Shown here: in pieces, positions 19,289-62,037 of the stretch | How the letters are laid out: every line of letters begins with the position of its first letter | Numbering within the stretch: the stretch's first letter is position 1 | IMG/VR virus record: IMGVR_UViG_3300021598_001257 | Reading direction: 5' to 3' (one strand) | Source of the DNA: an uncultured virus (IMG/VR IMGVR_UViG_3300021598_001257) | Lineage: Duplodnaviria > Heunggongvirae > Uroviricota > Caudoviricetes | Length of the DNA stretch: 64,000 nucleotides | Position numbers and translations under genes: made by a program | Notes under the pieces: model-generated | What the model was told of the DNA's origin: nothing | Seen by the model: only the letters and a program-made list of their open reading frames with translations | The model's database searches: none

Positions 19289-19294
19289 CGCAAT

Positions 19295-19436
19295 TCAGGC
19301 TCGCCACCAATTCTTTGACTGGAAATTGGAAACCAGGCGGGAGAGAGTCCCATCCGCACCACTTGCTCTTGAGAGAAGCAAGAAACTCATAGGGGTCATT
19401 TTGACTCCACCACTTAGTTTTGTGAAACTAAGAAAA
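19295..19436 (-). ncRNA. wcaG/manA-type cyanophage structured RNA
   Basis: Repeated TTT-stem-TGGYG modules and a GCGGATGGGA..TCCCGC hairpin, upstream of a wcaG-family epimerase; family assignment recalled, not searched. Confidence 0.7.
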
Positions 19437-20232: not shown

Positions 20233-20305
20233 TGCTCCTTGCGTGGATCGAACACGCCTCGGGCGAATTATGAGTTCGCTGCATTCACCAGATTGCTAAA
20301 GGAGC
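20233..20305 (-). tRNA. tRNA with CAT anticodon (Met or Ile2)
   Basis: Cloverleaf; GCGAA-CTCATAA-TTCGC. Confidence 0.9.
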
Positions 20306-20307
20306 GA

Positions 20308-20379
20308 TGGGAATACTGGGAGTTGAACCCAGACTAAGCCCTTATAAGGAGCCCGCTCTAACCATTAAGCTATACTCCC
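20308..20379 (-). tRNA. tRNA-Ile(TAT)
   Basis: GGCTC-CTTATAA-GGGCT; T loop TTCAACT. Confidence 0.88.
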
Positions 20380-20380
20380 G

Positions 20381-20455
20381 TGGTAGGACTGCTGAGACTT
20401 GAACTCAGTTCACACCGTTATAAGCAGTGGGCCTTAACCCATAGGCGACAGTCCC
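20381..20455 (-). tRNA. tRNA-Ile(TAT) with encoded CCA
   Basis: CACTG-CTTATAA-CGGTG. Confidence 0.88.
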
Positions 20456-20494
20456 ATAAGACCAGATCTATTGTAGAGGACCTGGAACTCTTCG

Positions 20495-20725
20495 TCAAGA
20501 ACCTTCTTCGTGGTCGGTATGTATTCGTATTACATCAGCATCCACTTTAGATTCTACTGCAAACTTTATGGTTTCGTTATATGGAACTATCACTGCGTTT
20601 CTTTCTCCATCAGTAATAATAAATGATTCGCCATTTTCTACTCTTTCTATTAGATTATCAAAATCTTCTTGAAACTCTTCGACTGTAAACTTTTGGAGAT
20701 CTGAAAGTTCTGGATACATTTTCAT
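20495..20725 (-). CDS. Phd/YefM antitoxin-like protein
   Basis: FTVEEFQEDFDNLIERVENGESFIIT...AVIVP resembles the Phd/YefM DNA-binding fold. Confidence 0.55.
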   Translation of the reverse strand: MKMYPELSDLQKFTVEEFQEDFDNLIERVENGESFIITDGERNAVIVPYNETIKFAVESKVDADVIRIHTDHEEGS

Positions 20726-20743
20726 AAAGTGAAGTTTTATGAG

Positions 20744-20817
20744 TCGGAATGACAGGATTCGAACCTGCGACATCTCGCTCCCAAAGCGAGTGCTCTACCA
20801 AACTGAGCTACATTCCG
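20744..20817 (-). tRNA. tRNA-Pro(TGG)
   Basis: CTCGC-TTTGGGA-GCGAG. Confidence 0.95.
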
Positions 20818-20934
20818 TTACTTGTTTTTGTGTATAAACATAATACCAGCAAATGGTATGATTGTCAACCCACATCCACATAAGAAAAGAAAGAAAGGAC
20901 TTGCTGCTAGTGTCTCAACTAAGTGGAAAATCAT
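20818..20934 (-). CDS. small membrane protein (38 aa)
   Basis: Hand translation MIFHLVETLAASPFFLFLCGCG... Confidence 0.5.
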   Translation of the reverse strand: MIFHLVETLAASPFFLFLCGCGLTIIPFAGIMFIHKNK

Positions 20935-21131
20935 CTTCCTCTCCAGTTCTTGTATTCATAGTACATGTATTGGTCCACTTCGTCAAGTCCTTGTAATGGT
21001 GCATTATCTGTTCTAGTAGACCATTCTTTGCAAAACTGTTTAATATCTATATTGTTTGCAATACCGTGTCCATACATTCTCACAAAAGCAGACATTGCAA
21101 AATTATACTTTTGCTTATTGGGGATATGCAT
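20931..21131 (-). CDS. hypothetical protein
   Basis: ORF starting MHIPNKQKY with ATGA overlap to the next gene. Confidence 0.6.
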   Translation of the reverse strand: MHIPNKQKYNFAMSAFVRMYGHGIANNIDIKQFCKEWSTRTDNAPLQGLDEVDQYMYYEYKNWRGR

Positions 21132-21309
21132 TATTGAGTCCCCATACAATAAACAATCCAACAATACCAATGATAGTCATTGCTGTAAAAATTGTATTAC
21201 TCATCTTCTTCGTCCTCGTAAGTTGATGGTTCTTCGAAGAGTTCATCCATTTTTTGTTGAAAAACTCTTTGATTTAATTTTTGCAAATCTTCTTCTGTAA
21301 TTGATACCA

Positions 21310-21513
21310 TTAGTTTAAAGTAATTTTAAGAAATGGAAGTAAAGGTGGAATAACCCCAACCAATCTCAAAAGTCCCTCAGCAAATAAAGCAAGAACCACC
21401 CAACCGACGCACATACTAATGATAGAAGCATTACGGTTGTGTCTTCGTATAGCAGCATCGATCATCTCCTGAACTTCAGAACGTGTGATAAATTCTTCTT
21501 GTTCGTGCATCAT
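21310..21513 (-). CDS. hypothetical membrane protein
   Basis: 67-aa ORF with C-terminal hydrophobic helix. Confidence 0.65.
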   Translation of the reverse strand: MMHEQEEFITRSEVQEMIDAAIRRHNRNASIISMCVGWVVLALFAEGLLRLVGVIPPLLPFLKITLN

Positions 21514-21659
21514 TTCTCATCTCCAAGAAACTTTGCAAGAGGATCTTTTTTAGTCTTCACGATTTCACATGACCTATAATAAAACATATTATTGGTGTTA
21601 CCAGAGGCTTCAAAAGTTGCCTTGATCTTCACCCAATTATCATAGGTGTGTTGATCCAT
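21510..21659 (-). CDS. hypothetical protein (49 aa)
   Basis: Hand translation MDQHTYDNWVKIKATFEASGNT...; ATGA overlap. Confidence 0.6.
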   Translation of the reverse strand: MDQHTYDNWVKIKATFEASGNTNNMFYYRSCEIVKTKKDPLAKFLGDEK

Positions 21660-21774
21660 AGGTTTGTTCCTGTGATACTACTATATAATAATCACAGACA
21701 TTTTAAAGTCAACTCTTTGTGTTCATATCGTAACACTGTTGAAGAAATTGTTAAATTTGTAACTATTCTTAAAA

Positions 21775-21860
21775 CGGAAGCGGTAGGATTTGAACCCACG
21801 AACGCTATTAACGTTGGTTGTTTTCAAGACAACTGCCATAAACCACTCGGCCACGCTTCC
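21775..21860 (-). tRNA. tRNA-Ser(TGA)
   Basis: GTTGT-CTTGAAA-ACAAC, long variable arm. Confidence 0.95.
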
Positions 21861-21872
21861 AATATTAGAGGT

Positions 21873-22124
21873 TCAACGAACCTCAAAATCCAAACGCTTT
21901 ACTTTACGTTGGCGTCTTGCTTCCTGAAAAGCAAGATCTTGTGAAGAGAGAAAATTTGATTTTTGTTCTCTCTGAATAGAGTTTAACATAACAATGCGAG
22001 ATAAGTCAACAGCTGAAACTTTATCTCCACGAATTGTTGCCATATTTGGACAACCACAAGTAACTGTTTTAGTTTGGTGTCCTATTAATTCTTTATTACA
22101 ATCTTTACATCTTATTGAAATCAT
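21873..22124 (-). CDS. hypothetical Zn-ribbon protein
   Basis: CKDC...CGC. Confidence 0.7.
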   Translation of the reverse strand: MISIRCKDCNKELIGHQTKTVTCGCPNMATIRGDKVSAVDLSRIVMLNSIQREQKSNFLSSQDLAFQEARRQRKVKRLDFEVR

Positions 22125-22139
22125 TGTTCTTCATCCTAT

Positions 22140-22574
22140 TCATTGTAAGTGCGATCTTAACATCCAAACAAATTTGCCATGAGACTCCATTAAATCTTGA
22201 ACTAGATTGGCAGTAGCATATGACTTTTGATTTTCAGACTCTTCCGAAATCTCTTGCATCAGTTCACAAAACTTGGTATTGTTATCAAGAAGTTCTTGAA
22301 GCATTTCTTTTGCTCCTGTTGAACTTGCTGCTTCTTTGATTTGAGTTACCTCAAGCATTCTCGAAAGAGAACTGAGAGGTTTTACGTTCAAATAACGCAT
22401 ATGCTCTGAGAGACGATCAATCTCTTCAAACATAGTTTCATATTGACCACCGAAGAGTTGGTGGAGTTGGGTGAAATCTTCGCCAACAACATTCCAATGA
22501 AAAGCCCAGGTTTTATGGAATAAAACAAAAAGTGATGACTGAGCATCACTTAAGAGTTTATAAAGTTTTTCCAT
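22140..22574 (-). CDS. dps: Dps/ferritin-like protein
   Basis: FHWNVVG..F..LH..F..QY...IDRLSE. Confidence 0.92.
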   Translation of the reverse strand: MEKLYKLLSDAQSSLFVLFHKTWAFHWNVVGEDFTQLHQLFGGQYETMFEEIDRLSEHMRYLNVKPLSSLSRMLEVTQIKEAASSTGAKEMLQELLDNNTKFCELMQEISEESENQKSYATANLVQDLMESHGKFVWMLRSHLQ

Positions 22575-22601
22575 TATACTCTTTTTGAAATATTTATGCA
22601 A

Positions 22602-22931
22602 CTATCTTCCATAGTCATCTTGCAATCTTACTATATCATCTTCATCACACTTACCAACCTGAACTTCAATAAAGGTCAGACCATCACTGTCGGCAGATGC
22701 TCTATGAACGGATTGTTTTTGTATATAATATGAAGTCTTTGAAGAAGTTGAGTATTCAGTTCCATCAATAATTACTTTTCCAGATCCATCAACAATAGTC
22801 CAGTACTCATCTCTATGATTGTGATACTGTAGAGAGAACTGCTGATAAGGATTAACTACGATTCTTTTAACTTTATAATTTTCCTCTTCTAGAAGAATTT
22901 CATAAGTTCCCCAAGGTCTTTTGTATATCAT
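22602..22931 (-). CDS. mannose-6-phosphate isomerase type II C-terminal cupin
   Basis: RPWG, SLQYHNHRDEYW, IEVQVG, EDDIVRLQDDYGR. Confidence 0.9.
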   Translation of the reverse strand: MIYKRPWGTYEILLEEENYKVKRIVVNPYQQFSLQYHNHRDEYWTIVDGSGKVIIDGTEYSTSSKTSYYIQKQSVHRASADSDGLTFIEVQVGKCDEDDIVRLQDDYGR

Positions 22932-22948
22932 ATTTTTTACTTTATATA

Positions 22949-23020
22949 TGGGCGATGACGGATTCGAACCGCCGACCTACTCCGTGTAAAGGAGGCACTC
23001 TACCGCTGAGTTAATCGCCC
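22949..23020 (-). tRNA. tRNA-Val(TAC)
   Basis: CTCC-TTTACAC-GGAG. Confidence 0.95.
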
Positions 23021-23120
23021 TCTAACGGGGGTGATCAAGTCCCCGACCTAAGCAAACTTAGGATTTAGTGAATCGGATATGATAGTCCCGATTCTTATGA
23101 AAGAACCTAAGTCCTTTCAA

Positions 23121-23193
23121 CTGGGGCGGCAGGGATCGAACCTGCGACCTAGATGTTAACAGCATCCCGCTACTACCGCTGAGCTACACCCCA
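23121..23193 (-). tRNA. tRNA-Asn(GTT)
   Basis: GATG-CTGTTAA-CATC. Confidence 0.95.
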
Positions 23194-23198
23194 TTATA

Positions 23199-23268
23199 AG
23201 GAAGTTACTGGACTTACACCAGTTCAAAGGGCATTGTCTGCTTGTCTCGTTTCTTTGACTTAACTTCC
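23199..23268 (-). ncRNA. tRNA-like element with degenerate anticodon arm
   Basis: Acceptor GGAAGTT/AACTTCC, D-like GTC..GAC, T arm ACTGG-TGTAAGT-CCAGT. Confidence 0.65.
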
Positions 23269-23306
23269 TTTGGCGTCTACCTAGTTAATCGCTAGGGACT
23301 ACCAAG

Positions 23307-23378
23307 AGCGGAGTATCGGAATCGAACCGACGACATCTAACTTGGAAGGATAGCGTTCTACCGCTGAACTAACTCCGC
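23307..23378 (-). tRNA. tRNA-Gly(TCC)
   Basis: CTATC-CTTCCAA-GTTAG. Confidence 0.93.
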
Positions 23379-23382
23379 AGGA

Positions 23383-23534
23383 GGAAAACACAAAACGTGG
23401 CGGTGTTTTGTGTTTTCCAAGTTATAGCAACTTCAGAATGGCGGTTCTTTAGTTGCTAGGTTTGGCATCTACAGAATGGCCGTTCCATAGATACCGATTT
23501 GGCAATTATAAAGTGGCGGTTCTATAATTGCCAA
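23383..23534 (-). ncRNA. array of four hairpins with conserved C(C/G)GCCA loops
   Basis: Inverted repeats at 23383-23418, 23425-23458, 23462-23497 and 23499-23534; stems unrelated in sequence, loops conserved. Confidence 0.8.
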
Positions 23535-23592
23535 TTCCCAAAGTAGGATTCGAACCTACAAGTTATAAACTTCTACCTTTTAGATTTTAGGA
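23535..23592 (-). ncRNA. 58-nt mini tRNA-like element
   Basis: Acceptor TCCTAAA/TTTGGGA, canonical T arm GTAGG-TTCGAAT-CCTAC, shrunken D and anticodon arms. Confidence 0.7.
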
Positions 23593-23604
23593 TTTGTTTT
23601 TTAT

Positions 23605-23633
23605 ATAGTAACAAACTTTTGATAGTTTGTCAA
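23605..23633 (-). promoter_or_regulatory. sigma70-like promoter
   Basis: TTGACA-N17-TACTAT. Confidence 0.75.
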
Positions 23634-23634
23634 G

Positions 23635-23716
23635 TGTCGATGAGAGGACTTGAACCTCCACAGATTAATCTACTGGAACCTAAACCCAGCGCGTCTACCA
23701 ATTCCGCCACATCGAC
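23635..23716 (-). tRNA. tRNA-Leu(TAG)
   Basis: CTGGG-TTTAGGT-TCCAG, long variable arm. Confidence 0.93.
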
Positions 23717-23761
23717 TTGATGGAGTAAGTGTGATATATCTCATAAGGATATAACAGTGAC

Positions 23762-23812
23762 TTACCCTCTATCACTTTTATATAGTAACAGACTCTAAAG
23801 AATCAGTCAAGC
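23762..23812. repeat. 51-bp direct repeat, copy 1 (contains TTGACW-N17-TACTAT promoter on minus strand)
   Basis: Two mismatches versus 25143-25193. Confidence 0.9.
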
Positions 23813-24059
23813 ATCTAAAGGAAAGAAGCATTCTGAAGAAACTAAAAGAAAAATGCGAGAAGCAGCACAATCTTATAGAACTCCAGAATATAGGAAAAAA
23901 ATATCAGATAGAATGACTGGAAGAAAAATATCAGATGAAACTAGAGAAAGACAAAAAATTGCTGCTAAAAAAAGATGCGAAATGCAAAAACTTGATAGAA
24001 TGGTAAAGCAATCAAATCAAGTAAATTTTTTAATTTGTTTATGGGAATCTGATTTTTAA
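23799..24059 (+). pseudogene. C-terminal fragment of a homing endonuclease (NUMOD3-like repeats)
   Basis: KGKKHSEETKRKM and TGRKISDETRER; no nuclease domain; frame closed by TAA at 23796. Confidence 0.7.
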
Positions 24060-24641
24060 TCACCACGCCCAACTTACGGCTGAAAATCGACGACCACGAG
24101 TTGCTTCAGTTACGCCGTGTGGGTAGAGAAAAAGGCTGGGAAACATTATGATGTCGCCTTTACCAAGAGGCACAATGTAGTCGTCCCAAAAATATAAATC
24201 TGCTCCTTCATAGTCATCATTCAAATTTAGAATGAATGAAAGCACTGGAATTCCAGCGTCTTGTGTATTCCAGAGACTGTGAATGTGGTCGTGATGTTGT
24301 CTCATAATCTGACCAGGACTATAACGATTGAAACGAATCGCAGAGAACTTGTTCATAATCTGCATCGTTCGTTCACATTCAAAGTGATACTTGGCATTAT
24401 ATGCAGCACCTGCCTGAATCATAAAAGGCGTCAAGAGCGATTGATGTTCCGCAGTAATATTCTGAACATCAAGTTCCATTGTTTCTTCTGAACCAAATGT
24501 TCCCTGCACGGCATTATACCAACTATGAGGTCTCCATTCTTTCTTTTCAATCTCATCTACGAGATAATCACATAGATTTGGCGGAATAATACCACGCTCT
24601 ACGTGAATAAGGTCTTTCAGTTGTGTATTAGGATTGTTCAT
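24060..24641 (-). CDS. 2OG-Fe(II) oxygenase (prolyl-hydroxylase-like)
   Basis: RY..GQIMRQHHD, LNDDYEG, HGVT...RFS. Confidence 0.88.
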   Translation of the reverse strand: MNNPNTQLKDLIHVERGIIPPNLCDYLVDEIEKKEWRPHSWYNAVQGTFGSEETMELDVQNITAEHQSLLTPFMIQAGAAYNAKYHFECERTMQIMNKFSAIRFNRYSPGQIMRQHHDHIHSLWNTQDAGIPVLSFILNLNDDYEGADLYFWDDYIVPLGKGDIIMFPSLFLYPHGVTEATRGRRFSAVSWAW

Positions 24642-25156
24642 ACGCACCTCTCAAGTGGAAGATAAGTTAAAGAATTTATATCACCAAGACTACCCTTTGC
24701 CCAAGTATTAAAGGACAAACTGATTCGTTCTGTTTCTGATTGATTAGCAGGAACACTATGAGTCAGATTACTAGGGAAGATAATCAGTTCTCCTGCTTTC
24801 ATTGGCAACAGAAATGTAGCACTATTAAAGTTATTGAACTTCTCACATTGAAGACTCACATCTCTTTGTGATTTACTACGAAACTGAATGGGTGGTAGTT
24901 GTTCATTAATCACAGGATACCATACTCCACTCACCAAACTATTTGGGTGAACGTGTTCGTGATGAGATTCTCCTTTACCAGACTTGTTAATCCACGATTG
25001 AGTAATTACAAGTTCATCAGTAGAGTTCATAATCTCTTTGACGAACTTATAAATCTTGGATTGAATAAATGCTCTGATATTATTCAACTCTGGTTTATCA
25101 AGTACAAAAGTATCTTCTGACTGGCGATTGTAGTGAATCACATTACCCACTATCAC
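24638..25156 (-). pseudogene. 2OG-Fe(II) oxygenase (TIGR02466-like), apparently 5'-truncated
   Basis: SWIN, HEHVHPNS..SGVWY, IIFPS.L.HSV, RISLSFN; reading frame runs into the repeat and tRNA. Confidence 0.75.
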
Positions 25157-25193
25157 TTTTATATAGTAACAGACTCTAAAGAATCTGTCAAGC
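25143..25193. repeat. 51-bp direct repeat, copy 2
   Basis: Matches 23762-23812. Confidence 0.9.
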
Positions 25194-25266
25194 GTCCTTT
25201 GAGAGATTCGAACTCCCGACACATAGGTTCGTAGCCTACTGCTCTGTTCCACTGAGCTAAAAGGAC
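25193..25266 (-). tRNA. tRNA-Arg(ACG)
   Basis: GTAGG-CTACGAA-CCTAT. Confidence 0.93.
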
Positions 25267-25269
25267 AAG

Positions 25270-25341
25270 TTCTGAGAGTAGGATTCGAACCCACGAATGG
25301 CGGGACCAAAACCCGCTGCCTTACCACTTGGCGACCTCAGA
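25270..25341 (-). tRNA. tRNA-Gln(TTG)
   Basis: GCGGG-TTTTGGT-CCCGC. Confidence 0.93.
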
Positions 25342-25413
25342 AGCCCTCAGTCGGATTTGAACCAACGACCTACTCATTACTAGTGAGTTGCTCTACCACT
25401 GAGCTATAAGGGC
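25342..25413 (-). tRNA. tRNA-Thr(AGT)
   Basis: ACTCA-CTAGTAA-TGAGT. Confidence 0.9.
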
Positions 25414-25415
25414 GG

Positions 25416-25486
25416 GGTGCCGTGAGGGAATCGAACCCTCATATAGAGAACCACAATCTCCTGTCTTACCATTAGACTAACGACAC
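25416..25486 (-). tRNA. tRNA-His(GTG)
   Basis: GGAGA-TTGTGGT-TCTCT, C discriminator. Confidence 0.92.
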
Positions 25487-25487
25487 A

Positions 25488-25561
25488 AGGCAGTAGATAG
25501 ATTTGAACTATCGACCATAGGCATATGAGACCCGTGCTCTGCCAGACTGAGCTATACTGCC
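25488..25561 (-). tRNA. tRNA-Met(CAT)
   Basis: GGGT-CTCATAT-GCCT. Confidence 0.85.
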
Positions 25562-25564
25562 AAA

Positions 25565-25653
25565 CGGAAGTGGTTGGATTCGAACCAACGGATGCCTATA
25601 AAGACATCGGCGGATTAGCAATCCACTGCATTAGACCTCTCTGCCACACTTCC
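25565..25653 (-). tRNA. tRNA-Ser(GCT)
   Basis: GTGGA-TTGCTAA-TCCGC, long variable arm. Confidence 0.95.
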
Positions 25654-25707
25654 TTAATGTTGCCTTCAATTAACCTAAGTGCGATTTAGGTTGCCTCAAG
25701 ACAACAA

Positions 25708-25780
25708 TGGAAACAACTGGACTCGAACCAGTGGTCTTTCGATTATCAGTCGAATGCTTTACCAACTAAGCTATGTTTCC
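25708..25780 (-). tRNA. tRNA-Ile(GAT)
   Basis: TTCGA-CTGATAA-TCGAA. Confidence 0.95.
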
Positions 25781-25781
25781 T

Positions 25782-25825
25782 TGGTATTCCTAACGGGATT
25801 CGAACCCGTGCTGCCCGATAGGAAC
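25782..25825 (-). pseudogene. tRNA (Glu-like) lacking D and anticodon arms (minihelix)
   Basis: GTTCCTA-TCGGGCAGC-ACGGG TTCGAAT CCCGT-TAGGAAT-ACCA. Confidence 0.75.
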
Positions 25826-25873
25826 TTAATGCTGACGGCATTCTGGATTATCAGCTCCAGCGCAAATCAGCAA

Positions 25874-25947
25874 CGACCCATACGGGATTTGAACCCGTGT
25901 TCTCCACCGTGACAGGGTGGCGTGATAGACCGCTACACTAATGGGTC
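25874..25947 (-). tRNA. tRNA-Asp(GTC)
   Basis: CCACC-CTGTCAC-GGTGG. Confidence 0.95.
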
Positions 25948-25951
25948 AAGG

Positions 25952-26023
25952 TGGGACATCTCGGATTCGAACCGAGGACTAATCGGTTAAAAGCCGAATA
26001 CTCTACCGCTGAGTTAATGTCCC
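25952..26023 (-). tRNA. tRNA-Lys(TTT)
   Basis: TCGG-CTTTTAA-CCGA. Confidence 0.95.
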
Positions 26024-26204
26024 AATAATGTGATAGATATTCAGTTGTCGATGTGCTGGTGGTCTCTCAACCACCCTTTAAGAATACCACCTTTTGGGCT
26101 CTGGGGGGAGATTGGTGGACGCTTAGGAAACTGGTCCAAGCAACAAAAAAGGGGAGGAAACTTTTGGTTTCTCTCCCCTGTCTTTTGCTTTTATGGATTA
26201 CATC

Positions 26205-26306
26205 TTACATATGTCTTTCCATTTCAGCAAACAGGGGAGTACCCTCAATATGCCATTCGCGGCAATCGAGATTACTAATCTGTTTGATGGTGATTTGGAA
26301 AGACAT
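26205..26306 (-). CDS. small late-expressed peptide (33 aa)
   Basis: MSFQITIKQISNLDCREWHIEGTPLFAEMERHM; TATAAATA upstream, terminator downstream. Confidence 0.5.
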   Translation of the reverse strand: MSFQITIKQISNLDCREWHIEGTPLFAEMERHM

Positions 26307-26358
26307 TGTTTTCGACCTAAGTGTGTTTATTTATAAGACTTTTATTTAAAAAAGTCAA

Positions 26359-26430
26359 CAGGCTCACCTGGAATCGAACCAGGGACGACCGCTTAGAAGG
26401 CGGTAGTTATATCCGCTTAACTATGAGCCC
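26359..26430 (-). tRNA. tRNA-Arg(TCT)
   Basis: ACCGC-CTTCTAA-GCGGT. Confidence 0.95.
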
Positions 26431-49132: not shown

Positions 49133-49515
49133 TTTTTTCCTCCAATATCAAGTCGTTTTTTGATGAAAGTTAGTTGTTCTTTTGTCAGGATTTTCAGTGC
49201 TTGGGATGCTTTTTCATTACTATAACCATAGTATTGTTTTATACATTCTAAGTCTGTAACCTTATCCTTTCGGAGCCAGGGAGAAAATCTCTTCTTTTTC
49301 CTCAAACTATTTAGATAAAATGAATATTGCATACGTTTATCGAGATGGTGATTCATATTCATTTCATTAGCAAAAAGAATCGTGTCAATCTGACCCGATA
49401 AACATTTATTGATAATGTAAGGTGCATATTCTTTTATGCTTGTCTCATCATCTTTCATCAAATCTTCTTTTGTGAAGTTGATAGAATTCAACCAATCTTT
49501 AAGTTCGTAAGTCAT
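49129..49515 (-). CDS. gp62: clamp loader small subunit (gp62)
   Basis: YIINKCLS, ANEMN, YYGYS.EKA; position next to regA. Confidence 0.9.
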   Translation of the reverse strand: MTYELKDWLNSINFTKEDLMKDDETSIKEYAPYIINKCLSGQIDTILFANEMNMNHHLDKRMQYSFYLNSLRKKKRFSPWLRKDKVTDLECIKQYYGYSNEKASQALKILTKEQLTFIKKRLDIGGKK

Positions 49516-50627
49516 CGTATAATCTGAATATCGTCATCATCGGTCCAAAGTTCAACTTTTGTTCGGAACCTATTTTCTTCTTTTAGTTTTTCATATCTCT
49601 TCGACGCTTTTTTCTTCCACCAAGAAATAATGTTTTCTAGATAAAATTTATCCCAGTTTGAACCACGAAGAAGTTGGGTATGTTCGCCAAGTATCACTTC
49701 ACGAACATTTGAATATCCATAATCAGAAATATAAAATCTCTTCTTTTGAGTGAGATTAAATGCAACATCAATTACACGATTAAACTCATCAAGTTTTTTC
49801 TTATCTTGAAGAGAATTTTTTATGATCGAAATCATTTTTGTCTGACGCTTCATCTTTTTAGATGATGCCTTATTATCAGTCAAAGGTGTATTGTTATTGA
49901 GATAGGTAAATCTATCGTGAAGTTTATGAAACACATCATCATGAAGAAGAGGTAAGAACTTACTCTCAGTCAAACCTTTATATCGCATGAATGGTTTTAG
50001 ACCATCATACTGAGATGCATCTGTAGTTGAACCATACAGAGAAGTTGTTTCAAAGAGAGCAATATCTTTTTCAAACACTTTGTTTAGTGTTTCTCTTGCG
50101 TAGTGAGAGCAGCAAAGTAGAGCAAGGAGTTTTCCACCAAGGTAATTGTATCCAAAAGGTTGAGAAGGAACAATTACAAATCCCATAGCAGCATGACGAT
50201 TGAAAATAGAAAGGTCTGGAGTTTTTCCCAACCATTCATTTCTTGGTTTAGAATTAATAGTTGGAGAACCAAAACGAATAAATCCAACTACCTTTCCAGT
50301 ATTCTTTTCATACACCATCCACCGCAATTCTCTACCAGGAATATTCGATTCATTATTGTGGGAGGATACAACCTTCAAAAGAGTGTTGTAGTGTTCTTGT
50401 GGTAATGATTGCTGAAAACGGTCGCCAATAAACTTAATATCAAACTCCATATCTTCCGGATGAATATCTTCATTCAGAAATTCATCATGAAGTGGCGCAA
50501 GTGTATTAGAACTCTTAATAACTTCTTTCTTCACAAAACGCAAATAATCCTCAATATTTCCCATTTGAGAGAAATAATTGATAAATTCACCAGCAGCCCA
50601 TTGAGCGTCTTGTTCGGAAATAATCAT
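49512..50627 (-). CDS. DUF4338/DruA-like protein
   Basis: PGRELR, PFGYNYLGGKLLALL, TTSLYG..SQYDGL. Confidence 0.7.
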   Translation of the reverse strand: MIISEQDAQWAAGEFINYFSQMGNIEDYLRFVKKEVIKSSNTLAPLHDEFLNEDIHPEDMEFDIKFIGDRFQQSLPQEHYNTLLKVVSSHNNESNIPGRELRWMVYEKNTGKVVGFIRFGSPTINSKPRNEWLGKTPDLSIFNRHAAMGFVIVPSQPFGYNYLGGKLLALLCCSHYARETLNKVFEKDIALFETTSLYGSTTDASQYDGLKPFMRYKGLTESKFLPLLHDDVFHKLHDRFTYLNNNTPLTDNKASSKKMKRQTKMISIIKNSLQDKKKLDEFNRVIDVAFNLTQKKRFYISDYGYSNVREVILGEHTQLLRGSNWDKFYLENIISWWKKKASKRYEKLKEENRFRTKVELWTDDDDIQIIR

Positions 50628-61641: not shown

Positions 61642-62037
61642 TTAGCTATTTTTATAAAGCTTTTCTAAGATTTCTTTAGCATCATTAACGTTAGCAATAT
61701 ACCCCATTCTTCGATTAATTTTTGATTGGTTCAAAGATTCTTTATTTGTCTGGCGAACATAGGATTGGTACATCATAATCATTTCAACATCAGAAGATTC
61801 TGAAAGAGTAAGTACATCTTCTAAATTAATTATAAACATATCTTCTTTAGTGGTTTTTAACCAAGGTTCTAGTTTATAACCAACAATATTTGTTCTGCTT
61901 TTTATTTCTGAAATAGTAATTGGATTGGAAATAATTAATAAAGTTCTATCTTCTTCCTCAGAAGCTGCAACTTTAGCAAATATTTCCTCTCCAGTTTTTA
62001 GTTTGATAGTAGCATAAAAATCTTCTTCAATTCCCAT
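61642..62037 (-). CDS. conserved cyanophage hypothetical protein
   Basis: IKLKTGEEIFA; lies between uvsW and gp55. Confidence 0.75.
   Translation of the reverse strand: MGIEEDFYATIKLKTGEEIFAKVAASEEEDRTLLIISNPITISEIKSRTNIVGYKLEPWLKTTKEDMFIINLEDVLTLSESSDVEMIMMYQSYVRQTNKESLNQSKINRRMGYIANVNDAKEILEKLYKNS

Follow-up and report, generated by a model that had tools for sequence, protein, structure and literature searches.

In this study, we report that the gaps between the transfer RNA (tRNA) genes of an uncultured virus of the Caudoviricetes hold a series of structured RNAs, and we characterise one such gap, between tRNA-Leu and tRNA-Gly, in a stretch of 64,000 nucleotides (nt) (IMG/VR record IMGVR_UViG_3300021598_001257; the whole stretch is called the window below). 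On the minus strand this 255-nt spacer carries a promoter, a 58-nt anticodon-less tRNA-like element (the mini-tRNA) and an array of four hairpins, H1 to H4, which presents a common loop on unrelated stems and is new to Rfam. On balance, and with modest confidence, we read the locus as a hyperplastic polycistronic tRNA operon of a freshwater T4-like cyanomyovirus, made of shuffled modules on one transcript, in which the hairpin loop is constrained and probably active.

A preliminary description made from the sequence alone had listed nine elements in this cassette, from the promoter to tRNA-Val. Eight of these nine were confirmed in that form, and all lie on the minus strand; for the remaining one the label 'second tRNA mimic' did not hold, as dealt with below. 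The upstream part of the cassette is laid out as follows, in transcription order.

23635..23716, minus strand: tRNA-Leu(UAG), the upstream neighbour (ARAGORN; Rfam tRNA 54.3 bits)
23605..23633, minus strand: sigma-70-type promoter, TTGACA-17-TACTAT, with a TG-extended -10 element (10/12 consensus matches)
23535..23592, minus strand: 58-nt anticodon-less tRNA-like element, the mini-tRNA (fold; Rfam tRNA 23.5 bits)
23499..23534, minus strand: hairpin H1, 14 base pairs (bp), loop ACCGCCAC, which also reads TTGGCA-18-TATAAT (fold; 11/12 promoter match)
23464..23495, minus strand: hairpin H2, 13 bp, loop CGGCCA, paralogue of H1 and H3 (fold)
23425..23458, minus strand: hairpin H3, 8 bp, internal loop and 4 bp, loop CCGCCA, paralogue of H1 and H2 (fold)
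23383..23418, minus strand: hairpin H4, 14 bp, loop ACCGCCAC, 4 nt upstream of tRNA-Gly (fold; relatives)
23307..23378, minus strand: tRNA-Gly(UCC) (ARAGORN; Rfam 66.5 bits)

The four-hairpin array

For the 255-nt spacer between tRNA-Leu and tRNA-Gly, the folding energy is -83.8 kcal/mol (z = -9.1), a value equalled by none of 200 shuffles. When H1 to H4 were aligned on their loops, 90% of the 60 cells were paired and compensatory changes were seen in 11 of the 15 pairs; none of 500 shuffles reached these values, and slid controls were 37-43% paired. The loop, AC(C/G)GCCA, is fixed, with six of eight central columns invariant against 4 of 28 stem columns (Fisher p = 0.002). H1 and H4 have all eight loop bases in common (ACCGCCAC) and 7 of 28 stem bases, while the paralogues H1 to H3 have 17-19 of 28 stem bases in common. 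The motif RAACSGCCA occurs three times in the 64-kb window, each time in the array, against an expectation of 0.65, and 2 of 100 shuffles reach three occurrences.

Among the records compared, the nearest to the window is G001 (121.9 kb), which is 100% identical to it across 22900-23800; the 4.4-kb contig G002 shows 98% identity between tRNA-Leu and the beginning of tRNA-Asn. When the loop motif was made more stringent, so that it covered H1-H3 only, it had no further occurrence in the 121.9 kb of G001. Two pattern scans of viral contigs for such arrays returned at least 120 and at least 119 stretches, from which a hairpin filter left G001 and G002 alone among the matches listed. A scan of metagenomes returned at least 117 stretches, all unrelated tandem repeats with no array among the matches listed, and is uninformative on absence. 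Beyond the tRNAs, no Rfam match was found in 22900-23800 even at E <= 10, and a blastn search against 50,697 phage records matched the tRNAs only, with no record covering at least 80% of the query. No published description of such an array was found in full-text searches on cyanophage non-coding RNAs, on T4 RNAC and RNAD and on tRNA-like processing signals in phage tRNA clusters. The array is not of the ToxI type, as its stems have diverged (7 of 28 bases between H1 and H4) where near-identical direct repeats of about 36 nt would be expected, and it has no Rfam match. No credible coding was found in the cassette, its 16 open reading frames (ORFs) of 20-35 amino acids all overlapping tRNAs or hairpins.

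The hairpins are of two origins. H1 is similar to the palindromic promoter hairpin of relatives, an element that resembles the early promoter and stem-loop (PeSL) units of T4-type phages: the similarity score is 14, which none of 300 shuffles reaches (shuffle maximum 11), and read on either strand H1 agrees with the promoter consensus in 11 of 12 positions. Judged from this similarity, H1 is derived from a PeSL-like promoter hairpin. H4, by contrast in origin, belongs to a family found in L630, L631/L633 (G003) and L632 as one hairpin, GGAAAACA...UGUUUUCC, which always stands 4 nt before tRNA-Gly. Four of the five variable stem pairs in this family are compensatory, and the relatives carry (ACC)n loops (ACCACCACC...), reading ACCACCACCUC or ACCACCACCACCC. 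That hairpins of two origins bear the same loop is the strongest hint of selection on the loop itself.

The array could also be regarded as acting at the level of DNA, as tandem or bidirectional promoters, as operators for dimeric proteins or as recombination hot spots of the PeSL kind. Such a role would suit the promoter match of H1 on both strands, the derivation of the units from promoter hairpins, and the description of PeSLs as recombination substrates in passages of PMC2839356. However, H2-H4 are without promoter hexamers and yet keep their pairing by compensatory changes, and four G-U or U-G cells of the alignment fit the minus-strand RNA only; on the opposite strand they would be A-C mismatches. 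Unlike a site for a dimer, the conserved centre lacks symmetry, and no genes are read from the plus strand in the cassette region. A function as DNA is accordingly rated as very improbable, and the hairpins are more naturally taken as structures kept in the minus-strand RNA. Because the loop is constrained, it would probably be the active part of these structures, most likely by binding a protein or RNA partner.

Several candidate partners of the loop were considered. Positions 7-13 of tRNA-Leu (GUGGCGG) offer 7 nt of complementarity and were rejected, as this site does not track the change of the loop: the loop of the relatives is ACCACC, yet L631-L633 keep GUGGCGG and L630 has AUGGCGG. Antisense pairing with the T arm of tRNA-Val was set aside since the 8-nt match is made by two of the four loops only, and the wcaG and manA RNAs were set aside with 6 nt of complementarity only. 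Across the window, complementarity of at least 9 nt was limited, besides the antisense of the array itself, to one 9-mer on the untranscribed strand of tRNA-Gln. RCCA is not a general trait of inter-tRNA hairpin loops, being present in 7 of 148 distinct hairpins against a shuffled mean of 5.9, and six of those seven belong to the present family. Finally, the loop sequence ACCRC is complementary over 5 bp to GYGGU in the D loop of tRNA-Gly, and its variable position matches in four of four hairpin-bearing alleles; in evolutionary terms this match amounts to one event or two, and H2 does not share it, so that a pairing of the loop with the tRNA-Gly D loop is a weak lead only.

A bolder proposal is that an RNA of about 155 nt carrying the array, excised by tRNA-processing enzymes, presents one loop in several copies and so titrates, as a decoy or sponge, a factor that recognises the ends or elbows of tRNAs. 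Copy number would have been raised from one to four by placing the same loop on unrelated hairpins, and every copy has RCCA, the motif of tRNA 3' ends. The factor might be a defence enzyme of the host that targets tRNAs, an enzyme of tRNA maturation or the tRNA-Gly D loop, with the mini-tRNA perhaps acting as an additional bait on that transcript. We assign this proposal a low probability.

Promoter, mini-tRNA and predicted processing of the transcript

The promoter TTGACA-N17-TACTAT, as first described, is present at 23633-23605, with a TG-extended -10 element. Its hexamers lie within a palindrome (hairpin 23632-23609), which makes it a PeSL-like promoter/stem-loop element. The same combination of a sigma-70-like early promoter and a palindrome, which characterises PeSLs, was found at 23633-23605, 25191-25163 and 23810-23782 on the minus strand. 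As a more general observation, the tRNA cluster has early promoters that form palindromes and are PeSL-like, with the -35 element in one hairpin arm and the -10 element in the other. Among phages the arms of the promoter hairpin covary, as seen in a collection of 25 distinct variants. Across the 120 loci compared by means of this tRNA-Leu, tRNA-Leu and tRNA-Gly are usually separated by a palindromic promoter of 37-40 nt, TTGACAAT...TATRATTGTC, and the 255-nt form was found once, in L391 (= G001). Differences between the cassettes of the window, G001 and G002 adjoin PeSL-like elements. No terminator-like site was found between 23633 and 22949.

Upstream, behind the promoter at 23810-23782, a leader of about 65 nt, GAUAGAGGGUAAGUCACUG...CACUUACUCCAUCA, lies immediately 5' of tRNA-Leu (23717-23781, minus strand). 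It is kept in S-SRM01, G002, G003, L630, L632 and L638, is without an Rfam match, and is represented among the RNA-library contigs from X15 and X16.

Transcription from sigma-70 promoters starts about 6-8 nt past the -10 element. With this geometry the start is predicted about 6-8 nt upstream of the mini-tRNA, which would thus lie at the extreme 5' end of the transcript; in that position it would not be required for the hairpin RNA to have a defined 5' end.

In the mini-tRNA (23592-23535), the acceptor stem measures 7 bp and is accompanied by a 5-bp arm closed by the 3-nt loop UAU, by the T arm GUAGG/UUCGAAU/CCUAC and by a reduced D arm that keeps GG (D loop AAAGG). The variable loop is absent, the discriminator is A and no CCA is encoded. 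Compared with an ordinary tRNA, it has a shorter D arm, an anticodon loop of 3 instead of 7 nt and no variable loop; despite these shortened regions, at least three in number, all four stems are perfectly paired (20 of 20 pairs). The element falls outside the tRNA family, with 23.5 bits and E 0.027 for Rfam RF00005 against a gathering score of 29, and no ARAGORN call was made; its anticodon arm carries a 3-nt and not a 7-nt loop on the 5-bp stem. It does possess the structural features of t-elements and mascRNA, namely 7 + 5 bp of acceptor stem and T arm, the T loop UUCGAAU and GG in the D loop.

The possibility raised initially, that the mini-tRNA is a full tRNA shortened by an assembly deletion, is excluded by further copies: the element is identical in G001, differs by one unpaired-base substitution in G002, and contigs of X2 and X6 (DNA runs from other studies) span 23350-23660 without a difference. 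A scan with a pattern of the T arm and 3' acceptor strand, biased towards tRNA-Asn by design, returned 105 stretches, in which mini-type copies were present in G001 and G002 alone and no full-length tRNA had the acceptor stem of the mini-tRNA.

Internal deletions of tRNA genes were detected elsewhere in the cluster by comparison of the window (about 25640-25960) with G001 (L354, 1087-1161) in otherwise identical DNA. In the window, tRNA-Glu(UUC) has a 31-nt internal deletion that leaves a 44-nt acceptor/T-arm remnant ending in ACCA (25825-25782, minus strand); in G001, tRNA-Ile(GAU) has an 11-nt internal deletion, and this gene is intact in the window at 25708-25780. These reciprocal events indicate that losses of the decoding part which spare the acceptor and T arm recur in the cluster, so that a decayed tRNA gene is the simplest origin of the mini-tRNA. 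From these comparisons the mini-tRNA is probably a trimmed tRNA relic. Three relatives have a single H4-type hairpin straight after the promoter, without a mini-tRNA.

Both RNase (ribonuclease) P and RNase Z read the acceptor/T domain of their substrates. In tRNAs without an encoded CCA, the 5' ends are made by RNase P and the 3' ends by RNase Z or by exonucleases; RNase Z is taken to be in use in cyanobacteria. None of the tRNAs of the cassette encodes CCA, and ordinary RNase P and 3'-end processing would on that account excise the spacers, with cuts near 23535/23534 and 23379/23378.

The following course of events is proposed. A palindromic PeSL-like early promoter right after tRNA-Leu would drive tRNA-Gly directly in most relatives. 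The lineage of the window would have gained an extra cassette between promoter and tRNA-Gly, consisting of a tRNA gene trimmed to a 58-nt non-decoding element and of a second promoter hairpin, H1, duplicated to H2 and H3, and abutting H4, the conserved leader hairpin of tRNA-Gly. Transcription would proceed from the 23633 promoter, with read-through from the 23810 promoter. Host RNase P (5' ends) and RNase Z or exonucleases (3' ends) would then cut out the tRNAs, and with this excision the spacers would inevitably be freed, among them an RNA of about 155 nt that carries the four hairpins (23534-23379). In this RNA the hairpins would be kept as minus-strand structures, with the constrained loop AC(C/G)GCCA as the probable active part.

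The preliminary description had gone further and proposed a purpose-built small-RNA operon, in which the mini-tRNA and tRNA-Gly are processing signals that release a stable RNA of about 155 nt with exact ends. It is in keeping with this idea that the mini-tRNA keeps the parts recognised by RNase P and RNase Z (7-bp acceptor stem, canonical T arm, GG in the D loop), that its 20 stem pairs are intact despite the shortened D arm, anticodon loop and variable loop, and that the hairpin loops are constrained. Analogues with tRNA-like signals also exist, as PMC1920247 describes for plant mitochondrial t-elements and PMC8457004 for mascRNA/MALAT1. On the other hand, the -10 element ends at 23605, so that a defined 5' end of the array is obtainable without any tRNA-like element; an H4-type hairpin follows the promoter directly, with no mini-tRNA, in the three relatives mentioned above; and internal tRNA deletions arise spontaneously in the cluster. 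We regard a purpose-built operon as unlikely. What stands of the proposed tRNA punctuation is the arrangement on one strand, with no intervening terminator-like site and with recurring spacer modules, and what falls away is the dedicated design, since the make-up is the modular one usual for cyanophages. Similarly, the acceptor/T-arm parts of a processing signal are kept in the mini-tRNA, but the internal deletions of other tRNAs make a decayed tRNA the simpler explanation.

At the other extreme, the cassette could be neutral debris, the mini-tRNA being a dead tRNA gene, the hairpins tandem duplicates of promoter or terminator hairpins that recombination made in a hyperplastic region, and the common loop a product of descent or gene conversion. 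H1-H3 are clear paralogues (17-19 of 28 stem bases) derived from a promoter hairpin, the deletions in tRNA-Glu and tRNA-Ile are fresh and reciprocal, and cassettes differ among close relatives, with G002 lacking the 100-nt spacer found downstream in the window and having another tRNA-Asn. The distribution of the array is also very narrow among the matches listed, and PeSL-mediated shuffling is documented in passages of PMC2839356. Yet debris of this kind is hard to square with stems that diverged by compensatory changes while the loops stayed fixed, with the identical 8-nt loops of H1 and H4 on unrelated stems, and with the ACC-rich H4-type loop that is kept over four lineages with a covarying stem. 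Decay would moreover give mismatches in the stems of the mini-tRNA, and none are present. Neutral debris therefore appears an improbable explanation of the cassette as a whole.

The modular tRNA operon with a constrained loop remains our preferred explanation, and the following points weigh against it. The fold of the mini-tRNA is ordinary (z = -1.1; 29 of 200 shuffles fold equally). Its perfect pairing after shortening is a better fit to selection than to pure decay. Its ancestry cannot be assigned from sequence comparison, the lead of tRNA-Asn being trivial (48.5, against 48.0 for Ile and 47.0 for Gln, among 352 distinct cyanophage tRNAs). Among the matches listed, the array is known from three near-identical records (the window, G001 and G002) and from read-derived contigs; the evidence for constraint on the loop comes from four paralogues and three H4 relatives; and the complementarity searches found no partner of the loop. 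In addition, PeSL stem-loops are reported as terminators in PMC2839356, and with such an activity four hairpins in a row might attenuate transcription.

Downstream spacer modules and genome context

The cassette continues downstream of tRNA-Gly with the following features.

23270..23305, minus strand: trailer hairpin UUGGUAGUC...GACGCCAA, directly after tRNA-Gly (fold)
23200..23268, minus strand: 69-nt module GGAAGUUAAG...AACUUCC (identical in relatives)
23121..23193, minus strand: tRNA-Asn(GUU) (ARAGORN; Rfam 55.3 bits)
23021..23120, minus strand: 100-nt Asn-to-Val spacer with four hairpin modules (fold)
22949..23020, minus strand: tRNA-Val(UAC) (ARAGORN; Rfam)
22602-22931: cupin/mannose-6-phosphate-isomerase-like ORF after tRNA-Val (Pfam PF01050, E 6e-27)

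Structured non-tRNA RNAs are the rule among cyanophage tRNAs. The trailer hairpin (23305-23270) is a member of a covarying family of post-tRNA hairpins, with compensatory variants at other loci. The 69-nt module (23268-23200), which had been taken for the second tRNA mimic, failed the tests for a tRNA: it has no match to the tRNA model at E <= 10, and its 7-nt loop is UGUAAGU and not UUCRANY. Its fold is instead a long closing stem with a 4-bp hairpin beside the 3' strand. A search with a 20-nt seed found the module identical in 11 of 11 loci (nine distinct contexts), always 4-6 nt upstream of tRNA-Asn, which is present as several alleles, while the hairpin before the module varies. It is best described, from this comparison, as an invariant leader element of tRNA-Asn.

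The 100-nt Asn-to-Val spacer forms four hairpins (z = -3.7, 0 of 200 shuffles), and its modules recur elsewhere with compensatory changes, for example GAAUCGG/CCGAUUC against GAGUCGG/CCGACUC. This spacer is absent from G002, which has a different tRNA-Asn allele.

A 226-nt RNA-library contig of run X15 spans 23173-23368, covering tRNA-Gly, its spacer and part of tRNA-Asn with seven differences and one gap. Further contigs of the RNA libraries extend over the 69-nt module, a portion of the 100-nt spacer and the element that precedes tRNA-Leu. The X15 and X16 contigs are from relatives, DNA carry-over is possible, and the array region (23379-23626) lies outside their coverage, so that they have no bearing on its expression.

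Between the same tRNAs, S-CREM1 has a manA RNA (96.6 bits) and an abiF RNA (52.2 bits) in the Rfam search, and passages of PMC9964418 describe its tRNA region with manA and abiF RNAs. RNAs of the abiF motif (RF03085) were observed just upstream of tRNAs in S-SRM01 (L001, about 1370-1406), in the Ile-to-Arg spacer of G003 (L511) and in L383 (1002-1038); the L383 copy, that of S-CREM1, was scored by Rfam (52.2 bits), and the S-SRM01 and G003 copies were recognised by eye. In bacteria the abiF motif is linked to abortive-infection genes. Cyanophage tRNA clusters may thus carry anti-defence RNAs; no abiF RNA was found by Rfam in the window.

The window belongs to a T4-like cyanomyovirus, as Pfam identified proteins of the gp43, gp44, gp45, RegA, UvsW, UvsX and UvsY types. 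The Pfam matches among the 53 ORFs scanned included DNA polymerase B, the clamp, the clamp loader, a UvsX-like protein, NrdA/B and a gp41-like helicase. Rfam detected one wcaG RNA (19293-19390) and 20 tRNAs in the window; by ARAGORN all 20 tRNAs are on the minus strand, and 19 of them lie within 20233-26430. At least half of the sampled words of the stretch were present in 14 of the 20 runs listed as containing it, and these 14 runs are labelled freshwater, lake-water or 'fungus' metagenomes.

Three further features of the window were recorded. The 335-nt Arg(UCU)-to-Lys spacer (26024-26358, minus strand) folds at -103.9 kcal/mol into several long hairpins and is without a tRNA or Rfam match. 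Between the clamp-loader genes, an unexpected site for a defence-related domain, an ORF (49512-50627, minus strand) matches the Druantia DruA family (PF14236, E 6.6e-11). An ORF with an Sm-like domain (61642-62037, minus strand; PF16243, E 1.8e-12) adjoins the UvsW helicase gene and, judged by this match, could encode an RNA-binding protein.

Relation to known systems and significance

Small RNAs inside a phage tRNA operon are an old idea. One likeness is to RNAC and RNAD of phage T4, also named stable RNA species 1 and 2: in both cases small non-tRNA RNAs lie among the tRNA genes of a T4-type phage, here on the same strand and presumably in the same precursors. RNAC and RNAD come from the T4 tRNA region and their roles are unknown, according to passages of PMC3014915 and PMC9697503. 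They were shown to be stable in T4, whereas the present array is known from its sequence and consists of four hairpins with one loop motif; a relation in sequence or structure between them is not expected.

The promoters resemble the PeSLs of Arbiol et al. (2010) and Comeau et al. (2014), which combine a sigma-70-type early promoter with a stem-loop, are repeated in hyperplastic regions and bound variable cassettes. Here, in contrast, the hexamers are inside the hairpin arms and not beside the hairpin, the cargo of the cassettes consists of tRNAs and small RNAs, not of ORFans, and H2-H4 have lost the promoter and kept the stem with a new GC-rich loop. The manA (RF01745), wcaG (RF01761) and abiF (RF03085) RNAs are likewise structured RNAs of unproven function between or beside cyanophage tRNAs; their models were unmatched in 22900-23800 at E <= 10, and neither the array nor the mini-tRNA falls into an Rfam family.

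As for the mini-tRNA, t-elements and mascRNA are non-decoding tRNA shapes that are cut by RNase P and RNase Z and so define the ends of neighbouring RNAs, as described in PMC1920247 and PMC8457004. The mini-tRNA is also a non-decoding tRNA shape and a candidate substrate of these enzymes. It differs in its predicted position at the 5' end of the transcript, where it would not be needed to make an end, and in being probably a decayed gene. With regard to the array, several copies of a short motif on one RNA are found in sponge RNAs of the CsrB/RsmZ type and in the repeat-expanded pseudo-ToxI of phage PhiTE. The four loop copies here, against one in relatives, are reminiscent of these, but the array loop is not GGA, its units are not direct repeats, and there is no Rfam match of the ToxI or Csr type.

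The tRNA clusters of phages are usually read only as supplies of tRNAs for codon usage or against host defence. The present locus is a clear case of inter-tRNA gaps that hold RNA structures under selection, and it shows a route by which such structures originate, with promoter hairpins recycled, duplicated and given a common loop. Should the loop bind no host factor, the locus would still document the recurrent internal deletion of phage tRNAs that spares their processing parts. If it does bind a host factor, this would represent an RNA-based manipulation of tRNA metabolism or defence by a cyanophage, and might hint at the function of the T4 RNAC/RNAD class.

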